Source of the DNA: a virus
Taxonomy: Duplodnaviria > Caudoviricetes
Strand: one strand, 5' to 3'
Virus record (IMG/VR): IMGVR_UViG_3300021255_000122
Location: 16,228 to 80,227 of that record
Length of the DNA stretch: 64,000 nt
Part shown: in pieces, positions 3,653-55,108 of the stretch
Numbering within the stretch: position 1 is the stretch's first letter
How the letters are laid out: each line of letters opens with the position of its first letter
The notes under the pieces: generated by a model
Told to the model about the DNA's origin: nothing
The model's database searches: none
What the model saw: the letters and a program-made list of their open reading frames with translations, nothing else
Made by a program: the position numbers and the translations under genes

Positions 3653-4042
3653 ATGGAAAATTCAATTATCGTACAAATAGAGAAAATCTTAGACAAGCAA
3701 ACATTCACTTCAAGTAAGACGGGAAACGTCTATGAAAAATTTTTCTTCGTAGGCAAGACGCAAGCGCAATATCCAAAGACAATCGCCTTTTCGGTGATGG
3801 GTGCGGAAAAGTTTGAGAAACTTGGTATTGTGGTAGGCAAAACGTACAATATTTCGTTTGATGTGGAAAGCCGCGAATGGAATGGAAAGTATTTTACCGA
3901 TATAACCGCATGGAAGGCCGTGTGCGTCGATGGTGGCAATGCGCCACAACAAGCATCATCCAATGTTCAAAATCCGCAACCGCAACCACAAGCCGCGCCG
4001 CAAACTACAACGAATGCCAATGATGATGGTCTGCCATTCTGA
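3653..4042 (+). CDS. DUF3127-family OB-fold ssDNA-binding-like protein
   Basis: FDVESREWNGKYFTDITAWK motif and acidic DDGLPF tail. Confidence 0.85.
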   Translation: MENSIIVQIEKILDKQTFTSSKTGNVYEKFFFVGKTQAQYPKTIAFSVMGAEKFEKLGIVVGKTYNISFDVESREWNGKYFTDITAWKAVCVDGGNAPQQASSNVQNPQPQPQAAPQTTTNANDDGLPF

Positions 4043-7986: not shown

Positions 7987-8062
7987 GTGGATAGGGCGGT
8001 TTGGCCACCGCTTGATAAGGGGTAATCCTATCGCCCCTTCCACTTTTTCAAATGATAGGATT
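7987..8062 (+). ncRNA. Homing-endonuclease-associated structured RNA leader, copy 1
   Basis: 57-nt three-way junction plus loop pairing to 8054-8062; covaries with the copy at 14700-14772. Confidence 0.8.
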
Positions 8063-8081: not shown

Positions 8082-8834
8082 ATGAAAGAAATTTGGAAAG
8101 ACGTTGTAGGCTACGAGGGTTTGTATCAAGTATCGAATCTTGGTAGGATAAAATCGTTACCAAAAGAAAAGAAAACCCCAACCACAACTTTTATGACGAA
8201 AGAAACAATCTTAAATCAACACAAAGATAAGGGTGGTTACTTTCGTGTAATGTTGACAAAGAAAGGGAAATCAATACTTAAATCAGTGCATGTCATTGTC
8301 GCTTCTGCTTTTATTGGTGAAAGGAATAATCTTACCGTAAACCATAAAGACGAAAATAAAGCCAACAATAACGCAAACAACCTTGAATATCTTACAAGAG
8401 CAGAAAACGTGAGGTACGGAACTGGTATTATTCGTAGTGCTAAAAACAGACAAAATAACCCTAACATAGGTATTGCTGTAAATCAATTCAACTTAGACGG
8501 TACTTTTGTCGCAAGATACAAATCTGCTTTTCTCGCAATGAAACTAAACGGTTGGAAAGGTTGTGGAGGTAATATCTTAGAATGTTGTAGAAAAAAGAAA
8601 CACACATTTATGGGTTTTGTGTGGCGTTTTGATGGAGATACAAACATTGAATTTGAACGAAAGACTAATGCCAAGGGTGTTTTGCAATTTACAAAGGATG
8701 GTGTACTCATCACAGAATATAAGTCATTGACAGATGCGGAAATGGCTACACATACTCAAAAAGCGCACATTTGCGATTGTTGTAAGGGAAATAGAAAATA
8801 CGCAAACGGTTTCTTGTGGAAATATAAGGATTAG
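8082..8834 (+). CDS. NUMOD4-HNH-NUMOD1 homing endonuclease
   Basis: EIWKDVVGYEGLYQVSNLGRIKS; VNHKDENKANNNANNLEY; two QF..DG....Y.S repeats. Confidence 0.9.
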   Translation: MKEIWKDVVGYEGLYQVSNLGRIKSLPKEKKTPTTTFMTKETILNQHKDKGGYFRVMLTKKGKSILKSVHVIVASAFIGERNNLTVNHKDENKANNNANNLEYLTRAENVRYGTGIIRSAKNRQNNPNIGIAVNQFNLDGTFVARYKSAFLAMKLNGWKGCGGNILECCRKKKHTFMGFVWRFDGDTNIEFERKTNAKGVLQFTKDGVLITEYKSLTDAEMATHTQKAHICDCCKGNRKYANGFLWKYKD

Positions 8835-8839
8835 TAATT

Positions 8840-10972
8840 ATGGATGCAAACGAAATTAGGCATTGGCACAGCGTTTTCAAACGTGATAATGAATTGTTTG
8901 AGATACGCATATTGGGAGATAGAACTTGGAGCGGATATTTTTATGACGTGGAAACTGCAATAAAGGCTCTTGAACCGTTTGATAATGCCAATATATATTA
9001 TTCAATCAATGAGGTTAAATCAGCTTGCGCAAGCAGAGACCAATTTAATTGTTTTAAACAAGTAAAAGGTACGGCTACAAGTAAACAAGATATAGAACAT
9101 CGTTGGTGGTTGCCTATTGATGTGGATTGTGAACGACCAAGCGGTGTTAGTTCAACCGAAGAAGAAAAAGCAAAGGCTCACAAAAAAGCGCAAGATGTTT
9201 TTGTATTCTTACGCGAAAATGGTTTTTGTACGCCAGTCGTTTGTGATAGTAGTTCGGGTTATCATATATTATACCCTATTGATATGGATAACAATCAAGA
9301 AAGCGAAGATTGCATAAAGGCTTTTCTTGAAATACTTGCAAACAACTTTACGGACGAGAGCGTAAAAATCGACACCGTATTGCATGATGCAAATAGAATA
9401 TTACGATTGTCAGGAACTTATGGACGCAAAGGCCGTTCGACAAAGGAAAGACCTCACCGTATGGCTAAGATACTTTCCGTACCAAGCGAAATAAAACGCA
9501 TGGGTATTGAACAAATCAAGGCTTTTAACGCAAAATACACAATTAAGGTTGAACAACCACAAAGACGGCAATTTCGTGGATTACAAAACGAGCAATTCAA
9601 TCTAAGGGATTTTATTGAAAAGTACGGTATTAAAGTCGCAAAGGAAATTCCTATTAGTGGTGGAGGTACAAAGTTTGTGCTCGAAGAATGCCCGTTCGAC
9701 CAGCAACATAAAGCCCCAGATTCCGCTTTGTTTGAAATGCCAAATGGTAGTATTGCGTTCAAATGCTTCCACAATTCTTGTTCGCAATACGATTGGCGTG
9801 CGTTTAGGTTGCATTTCGACCCACACGCTTACGATTATGAAAACGAACCAAGACAACAACACGTACCACAATCAACGTACCAACAAAAGGGTTACACGCA
9901 ACAAAAAAAGTACGAGATTAAAGAGGAAATCCCCGAACTTGGAGAAAAATGGCTTTCCATGTCAACTATAAAGAAAGTGGACTTGTCACAACTTGAACAC
10001 TTTTCTACGGGTTTTACAGAACTTGATAAGAATATAATTGGTCTTTACATGTCGGAAGTAACCATATTGTCGGGCAGTAACGCAAGTGGTAAATCATCAT
10101 GGTTAAACACGCTCTTACTAAATATAATCCAACAGGGAGGAAAGGCTGCTTTGTGGTCTGGTGAATTGCGCCCCGATATATTGAAGACGTGGATTCAAAT
10201 GGTAGCCGCAGGAAAATCAAATCTTAGGCTTTCAAACTATGGTGATGGCAAATATTATGTACCAAACGCAATTGCCGACAAAATAGACGAATGGCTCGAC
10301 GGAAAGTTTTTCTTGTACAATAACGAATACGGAAACTCATGGCAGCAAATCTTTCACGATATGGAATTGTTGTTAAAGGCTGGCGTAAAAGTATTTGCTT
10401 TGGATAACTTGTTTAGCCTTGATATTGATATTCTTGATGGGGATAAAAACAACAAGCAAAAGGAATTGATATTGCAAATCAAGGATTTTGCTAAAAAGAA
10501 CCTTGTACATATAATATTGGTTGCACACCCAAGGAAAGTTACTTCGTTCCTTAGAAAGAATGATATTAGCGGAACATCAGACTTACAAAATGCTGTTGAT
10601 AAGATATTTATAATTCATAGGGTAAATAACGACTTTTTCCGCTCTGGTGCTGAGTTCTTTGGCGAAAGCGAAATCAATCATTATCGTGGTTACGGAAACG
10701 TTATAGAAGTTTGCAAGGAAAGACTTTACGGCGTTGTTGACTTAATGGTAGGTATGCAATACGAGGTGGAAAGTCGTAGGTTCAAGAACACGATGGACGA
10801 AAACATTCGATATGGATGGGAAATAGAACCCATACAAAGCACGATGTCGTTTAATGGTGGCCAAGTGTACACGCAACCACAAGAAAACGCGCCACAAGCA
10901 AAAGAAACGGCAAATAACGCAAACGATATGATGCCATTTGCACCTTATGTTGGCGACGATACGCCTTTTTAG
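8840..10972 (+). CDS. Primase-helicase (AEP-like primase, Zn domain, SF4 helicase)
   Basis: PIDVDCE and SGYHI primase motifs; CPF..H..CFHNSC; GSNASGKS Walker A; LVAHPRK. Confidence 0.85.
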   Translation: MDANEIRHWHSVFKRDNELFEIRILGDRTWSGYFYDVETAIKALEPFDNANIYYSINEVKSACASRDQFNCFKQVKGTATSKQDIEHRWWLPIDVDCERPSGVSSTEEEKAKAHKKAQDVFVFLRENGFCTPVVCDSSSGYHILYPIDMDNNQESEDCIKAFLEILANNFTDESVKIDTVLHDANRILRLSGTYGRKGRSTKERPHRMAKILSVPSEIKRMGIEQIKAFNAKYTIKVEQPQRRQFRGLQNEQFNLRDFIEKYGIKVAKEIPISGGGTKFVLEECPFDQQHKAPDSALFEMPNGSIAFKCFHNSCSQYDWRAFRLHFDPHAYDYENEPRQQHVPQSTYQQKGYTQQKKYEIKEEIPELGEKWLSMSTIKKVDLSQLEHFSTGFTELDKNIIGLYMSEVTILSGSNASGKSSWLNTLLLNIIQQGGKAALWSGELRPDILKTWIQMVAAGKSNLRLSNYGDGKYYVPNAIADKIDEWLDGKFFLYNNEYGNSWQQIFHDMELLLKAGVKVFALDNLFSLDIDILDGDKNNKQKELILQIKDFAKKNLVHIILVAHPRKVTSFLRKNDISGTSDLQNAVDKIFIIHRVNNDFFRSGAEFFGESEINHYRGYGNVIEVCKERLYGVVDLMVGMQYEVESRRFKNTMDENIRYGWEIEPIQSTMSFNGGQVYTQPQENAPQAKETANNANDMMPFAPYVGDDTPF

Positions 10973-12807: not shown

Positions 12808-13287
12808 TTACGTTTGTGGGGCGTTAAGACAATGCATCGTGATAGTCCCCATAATCCAAGATTTATCTCCTCTTTTCATCTTTTGTGTCGTTGGCTTGTA
12901 TTCTTTCAAGCACACACAATGTACGTATTTGTTATTAACATAAGAAGATTGAATCCATACGTCTGAATCGGTCATGTACGATATGAAATTATCGTGTACC
13001 GATTGTACATCGAAACTTACGCTTGGATTTGTCGCGTATTTTTTTCTTATGATGAAAGTAATTTCTATATCCGTGTTTTCGCGAATAACAACGGGATTAT
13101 TTGTTGTTTCGCTAATTGTCGTTATAAGAAAATCTTCTTCTTGCGAATCAATCCATTGCGCCGTATAGATATTAACAGGTTTCCCTTTTGCAAGAAATCC
13201 GTCCATTTTCAATATCCTTAGACCATTGAACATTGTTTCAACGTTCGCAAATTCACCGTTGCTTGTGTTCTTTACTTGATATGTCAT
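12808..13287 (-). CDS. Putative tail (distal-tail-like) protein
   Basis: Last gene of the tail operon; beta-rich. Confidence 0.5.
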   Translation of the reverse strand: MTYQVKNTSNGEFANVETMFNGLRILKMDGFLAKGKPVNIYTAQWIDSQEEDFLITTISETTNNPVVIRENTDIEITFIIRKKYATNPSVSFDVQSVHDNFISYMTDSDVWIQSSYVNNKYVHCVCLKEYKPTTQKMKRGDKSWIMGTITMHCLNAPQT

Positions 13288-13862
13288 AATCTTAATTCCT
13301 TTCTAAACGTTTTAATTTGTCCCAAACAATATTTACCGTATTCAACATTTGAATTTTCGGAATATTTGTATATCGTGACGTTGCAAGTGTCGTCGCAATC
13401 CCTAATATTTACCGAAGATGTATCAAAAAGATAAATCCTAATACTTGAATACCCATCACATGTAAGGTTTATTTTACTACCATTGCTTATGTAAAGCGTA
13501 GGACAGGAAACTTTTGGCACTAAAACGTTAATATTACACCAAAGTAATTGTGTAACGTCCGTTGTAATTACCAAATCAGTTTGCGTGTCAATATACATTG
13601 CATAGGTAAATCCGTTTACACCATCACAATCGTTAAAAACGTGTCCATTGATATATTCTCCAAATTCTTTTTTGCAATACTCTTTCGACAACCCTTTGCC
13701 TCGATAACAAAAGTCCGCAAAATAAGGTGCTGCTTGTTGGTTTAGAACTAACCTTACCAACTTCTCTTTATCATCGTGGCAAGCCGCCCACTTACCATCC
13801 CATTCTTTACATAGATTAGCAAGTTTGGCGTTTTTTCTAAATTCTAACATTTCGTTTTTCAT
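13284..13862 (-). CDS. Hypothetical phage protein (Cys-rich, beta-helix-like C-terminus)
   Basis: Clean ORF within the tail operon. Confidence 0.7.
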   Translation of the reverse strand: MKNEMLEFRKNAKLANLCKEWDGKWAACHDDKEKLVRLVLNQQAAPYFADFCYRGKGLSKEYCKKEFGEYINGHVFNDCDGVNGFTYAMYIDTQTDLVITTDVTQLLWCNINVLVPKVSCPTLYISNGSKINLTCDGYSSIRIYLFDTSSVNIRDCDDTCNVTIYKYSENSNVEYGKYCLGQIKTFRKELRL

Positions 13863-13865
13863 ATA

Positions 13866-14678
13866 CTAATCAGTTATTTCTACCTTGTAATTCATTAAAG
13901 CATTATAAACTTTTTCGTTTATCTTTCCATCTTTGTAATATTGTGTTGCCATTTCTTGAATATGGGCTTCTTTCGTCTTTTTGTATGCTTGAAATGCTTT
14001 TTCTTGTGTATCAAACGTGCCAAGATTTATATATTCACCATACTTTCTAACAATAGCACTAAACGATTTGCGTTTATTTCTTTTTACTACACCTATCGGA
14101 AAATTACCCCTTGTTGCATCATGTTTTGTTATAAGCGTATTTATTTCAGATGGCACAAAACAACAAGTTTTAGGGGAATATACTTTATTGCCTTTTATAA
14201 GAATGTCCTTATCAAGATGATACCCTTCTACGTAATTCTCGTCAAACCATCTTTCGAAATTAGAAAAATACCGCCAACTATCACAAACAGTACAATTTTC
14301 GTAAGGTGTTCCTATGTTCTTTGACGAATAACATCTTTGAAACATGGCTTTCCATATTACATAAGATTTATGTCTTTCCCCTTTAACCGATGTGGAAAAA
14401 TCCGAATCATTTATACCAATGCCATATATTTTTTTTCGTGACCATTTTCTTGGAATACCGCCGTTATTACGTGAAGCATACGAACAACTTTTGCATCCAC
14501 AATACAATAAATGGTCGTGTGGGGTTTGTAAAAAAACACCATGTTTCTTGCATATAATAGGAACTTTTGTAGTGGTGTTAACGTAAATTTCTTCTGTAAT
14601 AAGGTTATAATCAAACCTGTTACCCCACACATTTTTAAATGCAGTTTTAATTTCTGCTAAAGTTTTCTTTCTTGGCAT
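13866..14678 (-). CDS. Homing endonuclease (Zn-binding N-terminus, HNH-like core, AP2 domain)
   Basis: ICKKHG..CGCKSC; WKAMFQRCY...LDKDILIKGNKVYSPKTCCFVP; NLGTFDTQEKAFQAY; alternative in-frame ATG at 14708. Confidence 0.85.
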   Translation of the reverse strand: MPRKKTLAEIKTAFKNVWGNRFDYNLITEEIYVNTTTKVPIICKKHGVFLQTPHDHLLYCGCKSCSYASRNNGGIPRKWSRKKIYGIGINDSDFSTSVKGERHKSYVIWKAMFQRCYSSKNIGTPYENCTVCDSWRYFSNFERWFDENYVEGYHLDKDILIKGNKVYSPKTCCFVPSEINTLITKHDATRGNFPIGVVKRNKRKSFSAIVRKYGEYINLGTFDTQEKAFQAYKKTKEAHIQEMATQYYKDGKINEKVYNALMNYKVEITD

Positions 14679-14699
14679 ATTATCTACACTTTTAATATT

Positions 14700-14772
14700 A
14701 TCTACCATTGGAATTATGGAAGGGGCGGTAGATTTGCCCCTTATCGGATGGTGGCCAAACCATCCTATCCAT
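14700..14772 (-). ncRNA. Homing-endonuclease-associated structured RNA leader, copy 2
   Basis: 45/57 identical to 7987-8043, with differences almost all compensatory. Confidence 0.8.
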
Positions 14773-14776
14773 ACTA

Positions 14777-14784
14777 CAAAGATA
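14777..14784 (-). promoter_or_regulatory. Bacteroidota -7 element (TATCTTTG) directly upstream of the RNA motif
   Basis: Perfect TAnnTTTG with TTTG upstream. Confidence 0.7.
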
Positions 14785-14822
14785 AACATTATTCTAAACA
14801 TATCCAAATATTTTTAAGTTCT

Positions 14823-17800
14823 TTAAGATAAAAGTTCAACAGCGAAAGCACGACCACTTGGTACAAGAACCCCTTCAAGTATATGTTGTATGGCTTGTTG
14901 AGTTTGGTACGATGATTGTAGCTGCAAAAGGATTTGGCTTACGGTAGCCGTTTGAACGTCTAAGTCAAAACCTACAACCGCATCGCGGATTTGCGTAAGT
15001 AAGTCACTATGCAAATAAACTTGTTGGCTTACGCTATTCATGTATGCTTCAAGTGCGCCTGCGGTTTCTTCCGTAACACTTTGAATACCTTGTTGTAATC
15101 CGCTAAGATTCTTACTTGGGTCTGCTTTGTCGCCAAACGAATAGTATTGACTTATTAATTCTTTAAGCCTCTCCGCAAGTTCTGGGGTTGTTTGCCCTAA
15201 TTGTTCCATCACCCAACTAATGTCAGAATCGTTAATTGCGGAAACCGAATCAAGTGCTTGTTTTGTCGATTTTTCGGCATCGGCAGCGGCTTTGCGATAT
15301 TCATCAGCAATCCTCTTGAACTTTGATGCATTTGATTGTTGCAACATAAACGCATCGTATGAACTGTAACCGCCAAATGTTGTAAGAATCTCCATGTCAT
15401 TCATGTTTTTTATATCGCTATTTCTTAATTGCGCTTCGGCGTATGCTTCCGCTTCTTTTTCCGAACGCGATGTGATTCTTTTATCTATGCTCTCCCAAAG
15501 GTTATCCATATATTGTGTCATAACACGCGAAACAATTGATTTCATTATCATGTTATCAATCATTTCTTCGAATTTACCTTCAAACACTTCCATGTAGTCC
15601 TCACCTTCACGGAAAGCATCTATCATGGATTCAACCAAGTTTTCTGCAAAATCACCAACGCTTGAAACACCCATTAGGTCGTTAACAATTTCGTTGGTCA
15701 TATCCATAATCTCGTATTGCAATTCCTTGATATTCTTTTGTAAATCAAGAATCTTGTCATCGTCACGGTCTTTGGAGTCACGCGACTTTTCAAGAATCAA
15801 TTGCCTACGTAGTTCTTCAAGTTGCAATTCCTTGTTGGCTTGTGCGGCTTTCTTAGCACCTACAACACTTGTTCCGTATGCGTTATCTATTGCGTGTTGC
15901 AAATCAACATAGGCGATTTCAAGCCGTTTAACGGCGCGTTCGGATGCTTCCACTTGTTCGGTTATCTTTTTGTTATTGTTGCCCGACAAGAAAGAAACAA
16001 GGCCGATAATAACGCTTAACGCGGCGGCTATAGCCAACAAATAAGGTGATGTTGATTGTAAAACAATCATTGCAGCCACGACACCCATGATAACGGTAGT
16101 CATAACGGAAAAACCTTCGGATATTGCATTGATAGCCTCTGCCGTATCATCATCGCCTGCGGCCTCGAATAGTTTTGCCACCGACGTAAATAATCCTTGC
16201 ACGTTTTCAAGTTGCCCAGAAAGACCTTGTAGGCCGTTTTGTAGTTTCTTGTAAGCCTTTTGTTGCTTGTTTTCTGCTTGAACAACCTTTATTTCTGCAT
16301 TTGATTGTCTTTGAATAGCAAGCGCAAGACGTTCTCTTGCTTTTGCTTGCATTTCGGGATTTGCATCTTCCGACTCGTCCAATTCGCGTTGAGCGGCTTC
16401 TACTTCTTTTGTTGCGTCGGCAAGTTCTTGTTGCGCCAATTTTGCTTCAGCGCTTGCTTGTCGCATTTCCCTAATGGATGATGTTATGGCAAGATACGGG
16501 TCACGGCTTTCAAGTTCGGATTGTGCTTGTTTTAGGCTTTGCATCAATGCTTTCATTGACGCTGGGTCTTCTTTGACTTGATTCTTTAAAGTTTCAAGTT
16601 TATCAATAATAAGTTGAATGGCGTGTGTGGAATTGTTTGACATATCCTCAAACGTCATTGTGTACAAATCCGAATCTTTGAAATCACCCCACGTTGCGCT
16701 TGCTATTTTACTATCTTGCATCTTAAATGCTGCATTTGCAACATTCGCGGCTACCTTGTTGCTTGATGTTACCTTAGATAAAACATCTGCAAGTTCTGCT
16801 TGTAAACGTGCAATTTCTTGTGGGTTGCTTGAAACCTTTATCCGCGATACAATGTCTAACGCTTGCGATTGTTGCGAATCGTTACCAAATTGACGAATGA
16901 TAGAAAGTTGTTCTTGAACGGTTTCTTTGTATATCTTAATGATTTTTGATTGTAAGTCACCGTACTTTTCTACCAAATCCGACCAATTCTTTGTAGCGGA
17001 CTTTGCTTCGTCAAGCCTTATCTTGTTGGCATATTCGCGTATCGAGTTGAGTGATTTTACAAAAGCACTATCCAAAGTTTGTCCTTGTTCTTTAGCCCAT
17101 TTTTCGAAATCGTTTTTGTCAAGCATTGCGGCAAGGTCGAAACTTTGTTGGATATTGTTTTCGGCAAACAATTTGTCAACACTTGCTTGCATCTTCGTGA
17201 CAACTTGGTTAAACGTTCTTGGTAAGTCACGTAGTTCGCTTTCATCAATACCCATCATGTCTGCAAAAACGTCGCCAAGTTCGGGGTTGGCATCAAGTTC
17301 TATGCCGAGTTCGTATTCTTCTTTAAGTTTACCAAGTTCATTGTTAAGGCCATCGGTTAACTTTTTGTAATCCGCTTTTGTAATTTCGACATTAATGTTT
17401 GCGATAGCTTTTTCAAGCGATTCTATTCCTTTTGCGTTGTTTGCACCCTTTGCAACATCAAGTAAGGACTTGTAATAATCTCGAACTTCTCGCAAGTCCA
17501 TATTGGCAAGTTCTTGTGCGCCCTTTGTTTGAACGCCGTACTTGCTTAATGTAGCGTTAACACGCATAAGTGTGTTGTTGTATTCTTCGGCTGCTTTTGT
17601 AATCGCTTCTTGTGCAGAAACACCCATCTTGCGATATTCGTTATATCGCTTTTGAATGTTGTTGATTAATTCTATTTCATCTTTAAGCGATTCGGCAAAC
17701 GGGTCTTTCTTAGCACCACCAGAGGATTTCGTCTTTTTATCATGTTTGTTTCTTTCTTCAAGGGCATCCCGTTCTTGTTTGTATTGTTTTTCACGCGCAG

Positions 17801-20648
17801 CGGATGCATACAACAAACCTTGTTCGTATGTTGTTTCCCTTGTATATCCTTTGGCGTGTCCACCACTTTGTGCAATAGCGGTAAAACGCGCTGCAAGCCT
17901 TTGCAATTCGGGCAAATCTATATTCTGCATCCATTGCGGCGGCTTTTGTGCCGTAAGTTTTAAGTCAAAGTTTATAACGTGGTTTTGTTGAGCAAGTTTC
18001 ACTATTTCATATACGCGATTATAAAGCGACACTGCGTCATTTGCATTGTTCCGCATAGCACGGGCGTTTGCGTCTACTTTTTCGGTAAACGACATCGTGC
18101 TCTGTGTAGCCTTTTTCGCGGCATTGTAGTTCGCTTCTGTTTTGTTGTTAAAGTTGTCTAATTCTTCTCGTGCTGTTTGTAAACTTTGAATAAAACTATC
18201 AAGCCCAACCTTATATGCACCGTGATTTTGTGAAAATTGTGTGAATTGTGCTTGTATTGTTTCCTCGCTTATTCCAACCGCCCGAAGCCTGTTGGCAATT
18301 TCTTTGTATATTTCTCTTAAACCTTTTTCGTATTCTTCACCCGTTTTATTGGCAATCAAAGATATTCTTTGTTGTACAATATCTCCAACTATTGCGCTTA
18401 TTACCTTTGAGTTTTCTTCAAGTTCTTTGGCAATTTGGGGTGAGAACTTACCATAGATACCAAGTGTGTCACCTCCTAATCTTTCTTCAAAAGCCTTTTG
18501 TGCTTCTTCAACTTGTGTTTTGTATGTTTCTTGTCCCGTAGCAAGCATATTGGCGCGTTGACGTTGTGCGCTTTCTTCTTGTACCAATTCAATAGTTCTT
18601 TCTATTTTTGAATTGATTTCATCGCGATTTTTGATTTCGCTAACACCGTATTCTTGTAAAACTTGGTTAAGGTCTCCGACTGTTTTCTTATACAAAGCAG
18701 TGTTTTCGTCAACACCTTTTAGGATTTTTCCAAGAGTTTCAATATTGCTAATGGTTTTTGCACCACTTTCACCAAAACGCTCAATATCTACGGTTGTCTT
18801 GTTTGCCGATTGCCTAAAGAAAAGGAAATAACTTGCGAGCCCCATAAGTGCTGATGCAAAAGCAACAACAACATTAGAAGACATAACGGCATTAAACGTT
18901 GCCATAGTTCCAGTAGCGGAACGAACAGCGTTGATATATTGGGTTATACCTACGATTATTCTTGTACCCCATGTTCTTTGATGTTCAAAGTTAACAACCG
19001 CAAGAATTGCCCGATAAGCACCGTATGTAACGATTAAAGATTGTATTATCGAAAGTACGGTTTTCCAATTTTCAAATATCTTTTTTATGGTTTGAACCGA
19101 CCCTACCAAAAAACCTTGATTACTTGCACCAATTTCGTTGTACATATTGTTCATCGCAAGCGTAAGGTTGTTCATTTGAACTTTTAGTGTTTCGGCTTGC
19201 TTGGCTTGGAAATCAAAGAACTTTCCTCCCTCGTCTGTGATTTTATATAAAACTTGAAGCACATCGGAATACGATACAAGTTTTTTTGACATCATATCAT
19301 AGACTTGTGCCGTAGTAACAATTTGGTCGCCAAAACGTTTTTGTTCGGTGTACATTTGTGCAAGCATTGGAACGATAGCAAGACCAGCGTTAGCAAAGTC
19401 ACGGGCATCACGGGCGTTAAGAAAACCTTGCGCCTTAATCTGTCCTAAGTTGTATGTTAAACGTTCCATAGAAACACCCAAAGCCGCACTAATATCTGCC
19501 AATCTACGTGTGGTATCTACAACTTCGTCTGCGGCAAAGTTGTATGCGGTAAGTTGTTTGGCGGCAGTACCAAGTTCAATCAACGTGAATGGCGACTTGA
19601 TAGCCATTTGGTTTAATTCGTTGAATATCTCGGAACCGCGCTCAAAAGAACCTACAAGAACGCCAAGACTTCTTTCCAATAATTCGTATTGACCGCGAAT
19701 TTCAAGAACTTGTTTTGTAAAGTTAGAAATTGCGCCTAATGTTAATGCGTAAACAACACGATTACGAATATATCCAAAAGATTGCGCCAACATATTGTTG
19801 GAACGGATTGCTTGGGCGTTTTTGCCAATAAGCTGTGTTTGCAACTTTGAAAGACGTTGGTATTCATCACCCAATTGTTTTACTTGCGTTTTATTATTTG
19901 GGTCAATAGAAACACGTCTTAATGCTTGCATTTTTTTTGCAATGGCATCAACGCTTGATTCATCCATACCAAGAACATCTTTGATTGTTTTTGGTTGAGC
20001 GTTTCTTATTTTGTCTATTTTGTCTTTACAATTTTGAATAGCGGTAGCAAGTCGGTTTGTTTGTTGTTGGCTAAGTATGGTTGTATTTGCGTATTTGGCT
20101 TGTATGCTTTCCAATGCACGAAGTTTTGTTTGTGCATCGGCTAACATTTTTGTTGGCATAGAGGTTGCTGCGCTAATTTCTTTGCGTGCGTTAGCCATAG
20201 ATTCTTTTAGCGTTCCTTTTGCAAGTATGCTCTGCAAACGTGTACGCATATCCTCTATTTGTTTGTTTATTGCCGCAACTTGTGGAGATGTTTGTTGGAA
20301 CGTGTCTCGCAAGCGTTCTGCGGCAGTTATTTGTTCCTTCAAATCTTTTATTGAATTTTGTGTTGCGCTTGCACCACTTCCACTTGAACTCCCGCGACTA
20401 CCAGCCGATTGTGCAGCTACCATAGCATCAAACGATTGCGACATTTTGCGCCACGCTTCTTGCATCGTATCGACACTAACCTTTTGTGTTATGGCAAAGT
20501 CTTTCATCGCAAGTTTCATCTTGTCAAGCCCTTCGGTAAAATTTTTGGCCATAGCATTTGTTTTATCGCCAACATAGTTCACCAAGTCTTGTATGGACTT
20601 TTCAAGTTCTCTCTTATCGAGACTGCCAACGATTATAACGTCATCCAT
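14823..20648 (-). CDS. Tail tape measure protein, 1941 aa
   Basis: Tape-measure domain (LERSLGVL...QLTAYNF...ADISAALG...NLGQIKAQG); helical; follows the chaperone genes. Confidence 0.92.
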   Translation of the reverse strand: MDDVIIVGSLDKRELEKSIQDLVNYVGDKTNAMAKNFTEGLDKMKLAMKDFAITQKVSVDTMQEAWRKMSQSFDAMVAAQSAGSRGSSSGSGASATQNSIKDLKEQITAAERLRDTFQQTSPQVAAINKQIEDMRTRLQSILAKGTLKESMANARKEISAATSMPTKMLADAQTKLRALESIQAKYANTTILSQQQTNRLATAIQNCKDKIDKIRNAQPKTIKDVLGMDESSVDAIAKKMQALRRVSIDPNNKTQVKQLGDEYQRLSKLQTQLIGKNAQAIRSNNMLAQSFGYIRNRVVYALTLGAISNFTKQVLEIRGQYELLERSLGVLVGSFERGSEIFNELNQMAIKSPFTLIELGTAAKQLTAYNFAADEVVDTTRRLADISAALGVSMERLTYNLGQIKAQGFLNARDARDFANAGLAIVPMLAQMYTEQKRFGDQIVTTAQVYDMMSKKLVSYSDVLQVLYKITDEGGKFFDFQAKQAETLKVQMNNLTLAMNNMYNEIGASNQGFLVGSVQTIKKIFENWKTVLSIIQSLIVTYGAYRAILAVVNFEHQRTWGTRIIVGITQYINAVRSATGTMATFNAVMSSNVVVAFASALMGLASYFLFFRQSANKTTVDIERFGESGAKTISNIETLGKILKGVDENTALYKKTVGDLNQVLQEYGVSEIKNRDEINSKIERTIELVQEESAQRQRANMLATGQETYKTQVEEAQKAFEERLGGDTLGIYGKFSPQIAKELEENSKVISAIVGDIVQQRISLIANKTGEEYEKGLREIYKEIANRLRAVGISEETIQAQFTQFSQNHGAYKVGLDSFIQSLQTAREELDNFNNKTEANYNAAKKATQSTMSFTEKVDANARAMRNNANDAVSLYNRVYEIVKLAQQNHVINFDLKLTAQKPPQWMQNIDLPELQRLAARFTAIAQSGGHAKGYTRETTYEQGLLYASAAREKQYKQERDALEERNKHDKKTKSSGGAKKDPFAESLKDEIELINNIQKRYNEYRKMGVSAQEAITKAAEEYNNTLMRVNATLSKYGVQTKGAQELANMDLREVRDYYKSLLDVAKGANNAKGIESLEKAIANINVEITKADYKKLTDGLNNELGKLKEEYELGIELDANPELGDVFADMMGIDESELRDLPRTFNQVVTKMQASVDKLFAENNIQQSFDLAAMLDKNDFEKWAKEQGQTLDSAFVKSLNSIREYANKIRLDEAKSATKNWSDLVEKYGDLQSKIIKIYKETVQEQLSIIRQFGNDSQQSQALDIVSRIKVSSNPQEIARLQAELADVLSKVTSSNKVAANVANAAFKMQDSKIASATWGDFKDSDLYTMTFEDMSNNSTHAIQLIIDKLETLKNQVKEDPASMKALMQSLKQAQSELESRDPYLAITSSIREMRQASAEAKLAQQELADATKEVEAAQRELDESEDANPEMQAKARERLALAIQRQSNAEIKVVQAENKQQKAYKKLQNGLQGLSGQLENVQGLFTSVAKLFEAAGDDDTAEAINAISEGFSVMTTVIMGVVAAMIVLQSTSPYLLAIAAALSVIIGLVSFLSGNNNKKITEQVEASERAVKRLEIAYVDLQHAIDNAYGTSVVGAKKAAQANKELQLEELRRQLILEKSRDSKDRDDDKILDLQKNIKELQYEIMDMTNEIVNDLMGVSSVGDFAENLVESMIDAFREGEDYMEVFEGKFEEMIDNMIMKSIVSRVMTQYMDNLWESIDKRITSRSEKEAEAYAEAQLRNSDIKNMNDMEILTTFGGYSSYDAFMLQQSNASKFKRIADEYRKAAADAEKSTKQALDSVSAINDSDISWVMEQLGQTTPELAERLKELISQYYSFGDKADPSKNLSGLQQGIQSVTEETAGALEAYMNSVSQQVYLHSDLLTQIRDAVVGFDLDVQTATVSQILLQLQSSYQTQQAIQHILEGVLVPSGRAFAVELLS

Positions 20649-53526: not shown

Positions 53527-53742
53527 TTATCTTTCGTGTGCCAATCTTATCATTTCCTTTCCTTTTTCCGTGGGTTCACCTTTTTTGTCGCAAGGAACGA
53601 ATATCATCGTTCGTTTGTCTATTTTTACCCACCGCCAACCTTCTTTCTCTAACTTTTTTTCAATACGCTTGGCCTTTACAAGTGTTTTCCTGTCGTTTTC
53701 CGTAACGGCTGGTTTCCATGCCGCCCAATTTGTTTCATTCAT
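53527..53742 (-). CDS. Hypothetical protein
   Basis: Clean ORF. Confidence 0.7.
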   Translation of the reverse strand: MNETNWAAWKPAVTENDRKTLVKAKRIEKKLEKEGWRWVKIDKRTMIFVPCDKKGEPTEKGKEMIRLAHER

Positions 53743-55108
53743 AGTCGCATATTATTAGTTCGTGTGCATAAGGTAATTCTTTAATCCAATCGCAAAAGAT
53801 GTGCCATTCGTGTAACTTGTGGTTTTTCCTTTGACGGTAAATAGTTGCCAATTGTTCGTAGTTTGTGGAACAACGCATAAATAGTTCAATTCCTTGCGGA
53901 CAATTGCTTAGAACGCGCATAAACGTATCGTAGCATGGATTTCTATTGTATCTCGCAATAAGCACTTTCATCATACGCCTTGCCGTAGAGCAAACATATT
54001 CATTAAAGCAAGCATCCATATCCATTTTTGTAAGACGGTGCATTTTGCTTGACGAACAAACAATATCAAGAAATCCGTACCGTTGCATTTCTGGCGAAAT
54101 GTAGTTTGGGTACTTTATATCGAAAGAAACGCGAATACCCTTCATTGCATTTCGATGTCCGCTACCTTGTGGTTGTTTTGCTAATCTCATTATTCTTTTA
54201 AAATCTTTAATAGCCAACATTAAGTTATAATTTCCTTTATCTGCAAAACACGCTTGTTGTGGTTTTTCAATACCGTATTTTTGAAAATGTAAAATATTAG
54301 GAGAAAATTGACCAAACAATTCTTTTTCTTTAGTTAATCTTTTTTTAATTGCATCTTCTTTGTTTGTATAATACCCAAGGTTAATAACATTTCCACCTAT
54401 CGCTATATAAGCCCTCCATTTTTTTCTATCTTTTCTATATGATATTCCAATTATGTTTTCGTCACCTTGAATGATTTTGTTTTTTTGTTTACTTTTGTTT
54501 AATAAGTTTTCTTTTTTAGAACAAGCACGTAGGTTTTTTCTTGTGTTGTTTGAAACATTCCTATCAATATGGTCTATTTCTTCGAATGTATATCCCAACG
54601 TATTACCAAGTAGCCTATGAAACAATTCATCGTCAACTTTTAAATAGCCATTTGAATCAACTTGTATATTTTTATCAAAGATTAACGGCAAATCAACACT
54701 ATCAATATAAGAAGTTCTTGTGATGTTCATGTCTCCAGTAACATCAATCTTTACAATGTCGTTTTCTAACAACGTGTACACAATGTGGTCTTTTATTTCA
54801 CCGTAACGATATAATGTATGAGAATGTTTTCCACAATAATAATTCCCATTTCCATTTCCCGCAAAAACCCTTTGTACATGATTGTTACTACCACATTTGC
54901 AACAGGAATTAATTGTGTTTAAACCTATATTTTTATTTTGATTTTCAAAAAAACGTATAAATCGAGGTAAAAAATCCCCGTGTTTTAACCAAAACCTTAA
55001 GTTTGTTACACGAAAATCAACATCTTTCATGTCGGTTTGCATTGCGTAAGAAGATGCAATTATACATTCTTCAATATCATATACCTTCCAATTTTTTATT
55101 TCAAGCAT
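53735..55108 (-). CDS. Phage ThyX-like (FAD-dependent thymidylate synthase-like) protein with an in-frame HNH-AP2 insertion
   Basis: KGIRVSFDIKYP, EMQRY, SSSKMHRL, NYEQLATIYRQRKNHKLHEW; insert with DHIDRNVSNNTRKNL and an AP2 domain. Confidence 0.75.
   Translation of the reverse strand: MLEIKNWKVYDIEECIIASSYAMQTDMKDVDFRVTNLRFWLKHGDFLPRFIRFFENQNKNIGLNTINSCCKCGSNNHVQRVFAGNGNGNYYCGKHSHTLYRYGEIKDHIVYTLLENDIVKIDVTGDMNITRTSYIDSVDLPLIFDKNIQVDSNGYLKVDDELFHRLLGNTLGYTFEEIDHIDRNVSNNTRKNLRACSKKENLLNKSKQKNKIIQGDENIIGISYRKDRKKWRAYIAIGGNVINLGYYTNKEDAIKKRLTKEKELFGQFSPNILHFQKYGIEKPQQACFADKGNYNLMLAIKDFKRIMRLAKQPQGSGHRNAMKGIRVSFDIKYPNYISPEMQRYGFLDIVCSSSKMHRLTKMDMDACFNEYVCSTARRMMKVLIARYNRNPCYDTFMRVLSNCPQGIELFMRCSTNYEQLATIYRQRKNHKLHEWHIFCDWIKELPYAHELIICDYE
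54224..55021 (-). mobile_element. In-frame homing endonuclease insert (Zn finger-HNH-AP2); boundaries approximate
   Basis: Residues about 30-295; AT-richer than the flanks. Confidence 0.65.

Follow-up and report, generated by a model that had tools for sequence, protein, structure and literature searches.

Organization of the locus

In the genome of a rumen phage (80,227 bp, complete), the gene for the tape-measure protein is followed by what appears, from comparison with related phages, to be a free-standing homing-endonuclease cassette of ~0.94 kb (approximately 13864-14806). Positions refer to the window, the whole stretch of 64,000 nucleotides (nt) that was analyzed. Read in the direction of its gene, on the minus strand, the cassette contains a TTTG -33 promoter element (14805-14808), situated close to the left end of the insert; a -7 element, TATCTTTG (14777-14784), of the type recognized by the primary sigma factor of Bacteroidota; a 57-nt RNA (14716-14772), G+C-richer than its surroundings, which folds as a three-way junction; two short segments complementary to one loop (L3) of this RNA; and an open reading frame (ORF) for a nuclease of 270 amino acids (aa). 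The first of the two segments, box A (UGGUAGAU, 14700-14707), is the complement of L3 plus its closing G and overlaps an upstream AUG (14708-14706). The second, box B (GUAGAU, 14682-14687), is another L3 complement and ends 3 nt ahead of the AUG at 14678. The nuclease ORF (13866-14678) begins with this second AUG, which is in frame with ATG 14708, and ends with a TAG at 13868-13866. The promoter, the RNA motif, its pairing target and both ATGs all lie on the minus strand, at exactly the positions given in the original prediction for this locus.

The same leader occurs once more in this phage, on the plus strand (copy 1, 7988-8046, with its boxes extending to 8076), where it precedes a nuclease gene with NUMOD4, HNH_3 and NUMOD1 domain matches (8082-8834, plus strand). 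The window contains the core word of the motif exactly two times (7998-8022, plus strand; 14761-14737, minus strand), and none of 100 shuffles contains it. A covariance model built for the leader, R1, when applied to the whole 80,227-bp phage, also detects two copies only, at 82.6 bits (copy 1) and 78.3 bits (copy 2, the copy within the cassette described above).

Fold of the leader RNA

Pattern scans of viral, metagenome and genome collections, which were blind to the content of the downstream sequence, yielded 35 distinct, genuine instances of the leader, with two chance matches set aside; instances found later, through proteins or through the covariance model, bring the total to 45. The scan of genome contigs gave one chance match, in a Dehalococcoidia metagenome-assembled genome (L051), and a viral match, L014, was also due to chance.

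In copy 2 the fold is the minimum free energy structure. It consists of a 5-bp stem, P1 (14772-14768/14720-14716), followed by the junction segment J1/2, UA(G); a 7-bp stem, P2 (14765-14759/14752-14746), whose loop (14758-14753) varies from 6 to 8 nt among instances; the segment J2/3, GAUAA (14745-14741); and a 5-bp stem, P3 (14740-14736/14726-14722), which carries the 9-nt loop L3, AAAUCUACC (14735-14727), and is separated from P1' by a single U. This fold is real. In the alignment of the 35 sequences 90.6% of the cells are paired, both sides have changed in 12 of the 20 pairs, and the covariation score is 0.471, compared with 0.149 +/- 0.014 for shuffled alignments (0 of 500) and at most 0.127 for slid partners. 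P2 alone displays at least four pair types at each of four positions, with zero unpaired cells. Alignment columns upstream of the predicted transcription start pair poorly, as expected if those bases are untranscribed.

Database searches with the leader were negative. At gathering thresholds, Rfam finds only two transfer RNAs (tRNAs) in the whole window, and at E <= 10 it returns only chance rows around copy 2; when 50,697 deposited phage genomes were searched by blastn, the sole match was an AT-rich one in Clostridium phages, due to chance. Two familiar types of RNA were considered and set aside: an intrinsic terminator (P1 of copy 2 has 5 bp and is followed by AAUUCC) and a self-cleaving ribozyme (zero matches to Rfam ribozymes).

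Promoter and 5' end

The TTTG at 14808-14805 and the -7 element at 14784-14777 are separated by a 20-nt spacer, and both fit the promoter used by the primary sigma factor of Bacteroidota, in which the elements are spaced by ~19-21 nt. The consensus for this promoter is TTTG/TANNTTTG at -33/-7, and the final G of the -7 element lies at position -5 (Baez et al., PMC6847099). Since this G sits at -5, +1 is predicted to fall on A14772, which is the first paired base of P1 (partner, U14716). This arrangement is common: in 28 of the 35 instances a TAnnTT(T/A)G sequence ends 3-6 nt ahead of GGATAG, and 13 instances have the same 20-nt spacing between the two promoter elements. Six instances have no promoter. 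Two promoter-less leaders, L021 (93-236) and L047 (1317-1460), start 3-4 nt past the CCA end of a tRNA and head a GIY-YIG gene, which suggests that tRNA processing may create their 5' ends; L033, L034 and L043 are listed with these two as promoter-less, tRNA-adjacent GIY-YIG leaders. Because the leader is preceded either by a promoter at a fixed distance or by an adjoining tRNA CCA end, it would always form the very 5' terminus of its RNA.

A base-paired 5' end could mean that the element chiefly protects the messenger RNA (mRNA) from 5'-end-dependent decay and insulates the cassette from upstream transcription and translation, with box B as a by-product of duplication. The predicted start is indeed the first paired base in the 28 instances with a promoter at this position, other copies lie right after a tRNA 3' end, and the cassette resides inside a highly expressed structural operon. 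We consider this explanation unlikely, however, as it fails to account either for the way in which box B tracks L3 through 18 different loop words or for the finding that box B of the related Escherichia coli RNAs is a Shine-Dalgarno site (both described below).

Two boxes that compete for one loop

L3 of copy 2 can form an 8-bp helix with box A (duplex, -10.3 kcal/mol) or a 6-bp helix with box B (-6.4 kcal/mol). The 35 instances contain 18 different L3 words, and every word has a matching box A and a matching box B in its own leader. Helices between a loop and its own box A have a mean length of 8.5 bp, versus 4.5 bp when loops are combined with foreign leaders; for box B the corresponding means are 6.3 bp and, for mismatched pairs, 4.4 bp. 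Box B is present in essentially all instances. The box A and box B pairings are mutually exclusive because they use the same loop bases, and the pairing with box A is the stabler one in nearly all instances. Bacteroidota do not rely on Shine-Dalgarno pairing; in these bacteria the region upstream of the start codon is unstructured and A-rich, and initiation is tuned by the secondary structure that forms around the start codon (PMC6847099). Since box B covaries with L3 although Bacteroidota do without Shine-Dalgarno pairing, the comparison argues that the L3:box B pairing is itself under selection.

The original prediction placed the pairing target of the loop over an in-frame AUG, which is correct for copy 2, and suggested that the two in-frame starts could provide an RNA-controlled choice of isoforms. 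The survey of instances leaves this last suggestion unsupported. An ATG overlaps the start of box A in only 18 of the 35 instances; 12 have TTG there, and five have neither. Moreover, while the upstream AUG of copy 2 is in frame with the nuclease, that of copy 1 opens a seven-codon upstream ORF that ends inside box B. In box A, pairing begins with the U and G of the upstream AUG, whose partners are the last base of the loop and the base that closes P3. Of the public protein calls that extend through the leader, only about half have a Met at this position. Thus, the upstream AUG appears to be a by-product of the pairing rather than a feature of the family, although initiation there might still have some role.

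Public gene calls treat this stretch not as an RNA element, but as the coding N-terminus of a 311-aa nuclease. Indeed, no stop interrupts the frame between ATG 14801 and the end of the RNA, and the record for the window's own protein (P0001) gives a length of 311 aa. The translated promoter plus motif, 'MFRI.CIFA.WIGWFGH.PIRGKS', forms the N-terminus of at least 38 of the 120 best homologues. We reject this interpretation as highly improbable. ATG 14801 falls between the -33 and -7 promoter elements, an in-frame stop separates the motif from the start codon in 18 of the 35 instances, and the frame in which the motif stands to its ORF differs from one ORF to another. In addition, substitutions in the stems are compensatory rather than synonymous, and two of the three frames of the G+C-rich core are stop-free anyway. 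N-termini that read through the leader are therefore best regarded as annotation artefacts.

Insertion polymorphism of the cassette

Upstream of the insert lies the tape-measure gene (14823-20648, minus strand; 1,941 aa; phrog_9959, 'tail length tape measure protein', E 4.7e-71), whose stop codon (14825-14823) is 51 nt ahead of the RNA motif. Downstream, three bases past the nuclease TAG, is the ATG (13862) of a conserved 192-aa gene (13284-13862, minus strand; phrog_10156, function not assigned). The cassette therefore does sit between the tape-measure stop and the next gene, as had been predicted; this next gene, at most a candidate tail gene, is syntenic with the tape-measure gene in relatives.

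Homologues of the 192-aa gene in other phages were used to locate occupied and empty sites. At empty sites the nuclease gene is absent, and the distance from the tape-measure stop to the 192-aa homologue is 23 nt (L053), ~2 nt (L054) or 49 nt (L055 and L056). At occupied sites the gap holds the leader together with a shorter nuclease (L052) or with a nuclease 69% identical to that of the window (L057-L059). The nuclease of L057 also differs in length from that of the window. When the junctions of occupied sites (window, L052, L057 and L060) were aligned with those of empty sites (L053 and L054), the homology of the empty sites was found to extend ~17 nt beyond the tape-measure stop and to resume at the ATG of the next gene. 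Comparison with relatives that lack the insert (sites empty in L053-L056) thus sets the ends of the cassette at ~14806 and ~13864, as the original prediction had proposed could be done, and between these ends lie the promoter, the leader and the ORF, and nothing else. Among these relatives the cassette is a presence/absence polymorphism at a single intergenic site, with the flanking genes intact.

The L053 genome carries three cassettes at other sites, and complete related phages carry one to three each. A 17.7-kb viral contig, L008, contains three leader-nuclease cassettes (3962-4033, 9780-9850 and 13637-13705), two with NUMOD4-HNH genes and one with a DUF723-type gene, and each has a separate loop/box word. 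The empty site was not found in metagenome contigs from four runs. A 24-kb contig from another sample is ~97% identical to the region save for a strongly diverged 241-bp stretch of the same length (window 13241-13483), which reaches from the last part of the 192-aa gene into the first part of its downstream neighbour, and may be a patch of recombination or co-conversion.

The nuclease

The nuclease belongs to phrog_953 (E 1.3e-75). It has more than 4,200 homologues at E <= 1e-3, for which precomputed matches to DUF723, and sometimes to AP2, are listed; a Pfam scan of the 270-aa protein itself found nothing, including no HNH family at E <= 10. The AlphaFold (AF2) model, with a pLDDT (predicted local distance difference test) score of 92, has three parts: a zinc-ribbon-like N-terminal domain (residues ~1-75), a Cys-rich core with an invariant LDKD..N..CC..N (residues ~76-190; 14109-14453), and a C-terminal AP2 DNA-binding domain (residues ~192-270; 13869-14105). 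The AP2 domain matches structure 2gcc_A (Z 7.0; root mean square deviation, rmsd, 2.0 over 57 residues), Foldseek with the full model returns AP2 only (1gcc_A, probability 1.00), and hhalign against HNH_3-AP2 proteins gives 93% to AP2 and aligns no other part.

The core is more difficult to classify. Among homologues it keeps LDKD, a pair of Asn residues and four to five Cys invariant; in 'YHLDKD', the His can be replaced by C, S or Q. The best nuclease match to the core in the full model is a weak one, to PacI (3m7k_A; Z 4.5, rmsd 4.7 over 101 residues), and when the core is folded alone (pLDDT 68.5) its fold matches none above Z 2.6. For PHROG families 953, 374, 2081 and 3377, 'HNH endonuclease' is only a name. 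We have not filed the core as HNH, and on the sequence and the model its membership is unproven. Consequently, of the earlier description of the protein as Zn/HNH-like/AP2, the zinc-ribbon-like and AP2 portions hold, while the HNH-like portion, with no Pfam HNH match, no conserved His and only the weak match to PacI, does not have the same standing.

The protein can be compared with the HNH-AP2 phage homing endonucleases (PHROG 953/374; DUF723 plus AP2). Like them it has a C-terminal AP2 domain; its homologues have an N-terminal DUF723-like zinc-ribbon region, and free-standing, polymorphic phage insertion is also seen here. Unlike them, its core, which is presumably catalytic, lacks a match to a Pfam HNH or HNH_3 profile. 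The nuclease has no recognisable similarity to the NUMOD4-HNH protein of copy 1 (BLASTP E 0.69; profile-profile hhalign probability 0.2%), as had been noticed from the sequence. The two are thus not paralogues, so recent duplication does not explain the second leader and the cassette reading survives. A third ORF with an HNH_3 match (53735-55108, minus strand, 457 aa, E 8e-6) is found without a leader RNA.

Genes behind the leader

When the ORFs that follow the leader were surveyed, 43 of 45 proved to be homing-endonuclease-like, rather than mostly housekeeping genes, and they represent three catalytic superfamilies (HNH, GIY-YIG and PD-(D/E)XK). They include NUMOD4-HNH_3 proteins, HNH_3 proteins with an I-HmuI-type NUMOD domain, HNH_3-AP2 proteins, long and short forms of the DUF723-AP2 family, GIY-YIG proteins with NUMOD3, NUMOD1 or a helix-turn-helix, and PD-(D/E)XK proteins with NUMOD1. 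The two exceptions (L019 and L028) are small ORFs without an assigned family. Leader subtypes track nuclease types only loosely; for example, the 'GCAAAGUGGAUAG' type heads NUMOD4-HNH genes and also DUF723-type genes (L012 and L008). In three metagenomes, contigs follow the window leader up to 14676 and then continue into a short ORF of the L022 type. In rumen and gut metagenomes the summed contig depth has a two- to three-fold peak over window 14653-14826 (promoter plus leader), because several different contigs share that stretch.

The leader is a portable module. Together, the polymorphic insertion and the presence of the same leader before three catalytic superfamilies bear out the proposal that promoter, RNA and nuclease form a self-contained mobile cassette whose nuclease is interchangeable.

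Relationship to int-alpA and other RNAs

The phage leaders resemble an orphan RNA family, int-alpA (RF02996), which Rfam files as 'Gene; sRNA' (small RNA). Leader L028 matches the RF02996 model at 35.2 bits (E 7e-4; gathering threshold, 35.8 bits), while the window copies give no match even at E 10 (copy 2 region and whole phage). In the opposite direction, R1 matches a genuine E. coli int-alpA (L066) at 24 bits (E 1.3e-5). The order of the elements is the same in both groups: P1, UAG, P2, GA-N-AAG, P3, 1-3 junction nt and P1', after which come a U-rich linker and a box able to pair with the P3 loop. The phage leaders differ in having a longer P2 and in using 18 free loop/box words, compared with the fixed CCUU/AAGG anti-Shine-Dalgarno/Shine-Dalgarno pair of int-alpA. 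They also differ in setting: the phage leaders are promoter-proximal and precede homing-endonuclease genes in Bacteroidota phages, whereas int-alpA is found in enterobacterial islands, in the space that follows an integrase gene.

Four genuine E. coli members, L066 (1493-1584), L077, L078 and L079, which score 60-70 bits on RF02996, were compared. All four are placed downstream of an integrase stop, ahead of the next ORF. Their L3 is (G/A)CCUUA; box A, UAAGG(C/U), covaries with it; and box B, AAGGU, lies 6-10 nt ahead of the ATG, which is the Shine-Dalgarno position. The 290-320-aa proteins encoded downstream have no Pfam or PHROG family match. The two RNA groups are bridged by L074 (1501-1570), a weak, 27-bit variant that combines an int-alpA-type junction (GAAAAG) with the loop GUCGAAA and a pair of UUUCGAC boxes; the 309-aa protein encoded behind it matches GIY-YIG and NUMOD1 weakly. 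Judged by the model scores and the shared layout, the phage leader is a divergent, uncatalogued branch of the int-alpA family in Bacteroidota phages, with the two-box design common to both branches.

The Rfam typing of int-alpA, together with the U-rich tract that follows P1 in many copies, could point to a small RNA that is set free and works in trans. This would be hard to reconcile with the position of the RNA, which in every instance is directly upstream of an ORF on the same strand, with a loop complement beside the start codon; furthermore, the P1 stem of copy 2, at 5 bp, is weak and has AAUUCC behind it rather than a U-run. We regard a trans-acting role as very unlikely, and the E. coli int-alpA RNAs themselves look cis-regulatory rather than like the small RNAs of the Rfam type. 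The main text of PMC5737381 does not contain the name int-alpA, and two other papers that mention the name do not state a function.

The design of the leader also recalls RNAs that are known to govern the start of translation. For example, in the preQ1-II and SAM-II riboswitches, a pseudoknot between a loop and the 3' tail covers the ribosome-binding region. The leader has a loop-to-3'-tail pseudoknot at the corresponding place, but differs from these riboswitches in having a second, decoy site and zero sequence or Rfam similarity. Another parallel is found in the T-even phages, in which RNA structures that sequester the ribosome-binding site limit or time translation of the homing endonucleases I-TevI, I-TevII, I-TevIII, segB and Aeh1 mobE (PMC2988022). 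Like the window leader, these hairpins are cis structures at the start of a nuclease gene with a dedicated promoter immediately upstream (PMC2988022). However, the T-even hairpins are simple and gene-specific, and late transcripts that start inside the hairpin escape control. In contrast, the leader is a portable three-way junction with both a decoy and a start-proximal site, is found with unrelated nucleases, and lies wholly inside the transcript of the cassette.

A model for control of nuclease expression

The leader is, in our judgment, probably a cis-acting throttle on translation of the nuclease, although our confidence in this goes only modestly beyond an even chance. The cassette would be transcribed from its own Bacteroidota promoter, with the transcript beginning at the first base of the 57-nt three-way junction. 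When L3 is parked on box A, which would act as a decoy, the start region would be free and the mRNA translatable; when L3 instead pairs with box B, the start region would be masked, at a site that needs to be unstructured for a ribosome that works without Shine-Dalgarno pairing. Toggling between the two forms would keep nuclease output low or timed, and the mRNA may also gain stability from its base-paired 5' end. A toggle is the simplest reading because both complementarities have been kept by selection, yet cannot coexist. It also fits, by analogy, the restraint of other phage homing endonucleases by RNA placed over their ribosome-binding sites (PMC2988022). As box A is the stronger partner, the toggle seems to require a trigger, for which the candidates are a factor bound at the invariant junction, ribosomes that initiate at or near box A, or the kinetics of folding. 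We infer the transcription start, the effect on translation, the direction of the switch and its trigger.

Several points weigh against such a throttle. First, with box A the stabler site, the RNA would rest in its 'on' form absent a trigger, making the masking by box B hard to place. Second, the strictly conserved junction (UAG, GANAAG) is left unexplained by a plain competition between two helices and hints at a bound factor. Third, GATAG, GATAAGGGG and CCCCTTCC were fixed by the search patterns, so that conservation at these positions is partly forced. Positions fixed in this way also vary, in a compensatory manner, among the later finds made through proteins or the model: L057 has a P3 of CGGC/GCCG and the junction UGACAAG, and L062 and L074 are different again.

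The leading alternative to the cis throttle is a version that senses a ligand or a protein. Here the junction would be an aptamer or a protein-binding site, and a putative infection-state factor would select box A or box B, as in a riboswitch-like sensor. From E. coli int-alpA to the phage leaders the junction nucleotides (UAG; GA-N-AAG) are invariant or nearly so while all the stems vary, two exclusive pairings need a chooser, and unrelated nucleases have the leader in common. The sensed factor cannot be the nuclease itself, because unrelated nucleases carry the same leader. Nevertheless, there is zero similarity to Rfam riboswitch families, ligand-related genes are not linked to the leader, and the invariance of the junction was partly imposed by the search patterns. 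We view a sensor as doubtful, perhaps a one-in-several prospect, with the throttle preferred.

More speculatively, and at less than even likelihood, the int-alpA superfamily, this leader included, could be a portable, two-state translational switch that very different mobile elements have in common, among them the integrase islands of enterobacteria and the homing-endonuclease cassettes found in phages of Bacteroidota, Acinetobacter and Bacillus. The invariant junction would bind a cellular or phage signal that chooses between the decoy and the ribosome-binding site, and nuclease genes would have been swapped behind the switch.

The cassettes have both practical and biological consequences. 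Public gene calls have given thousands of nuclease entries a spurious hydrophobic N-terminus of ~40 residues; a covariance model of the leader would correct these nuclease starts and flag homing-endonuclease insertions in phage genomes. The comparison also gives the orphan RNA family int-alpA a testable function, the control of translation start. Finally, selfish nuclease genes such as those described here travel as complete expression modules, which consist of a promoter, a regulatory RNA and an exchangeable nuclease.

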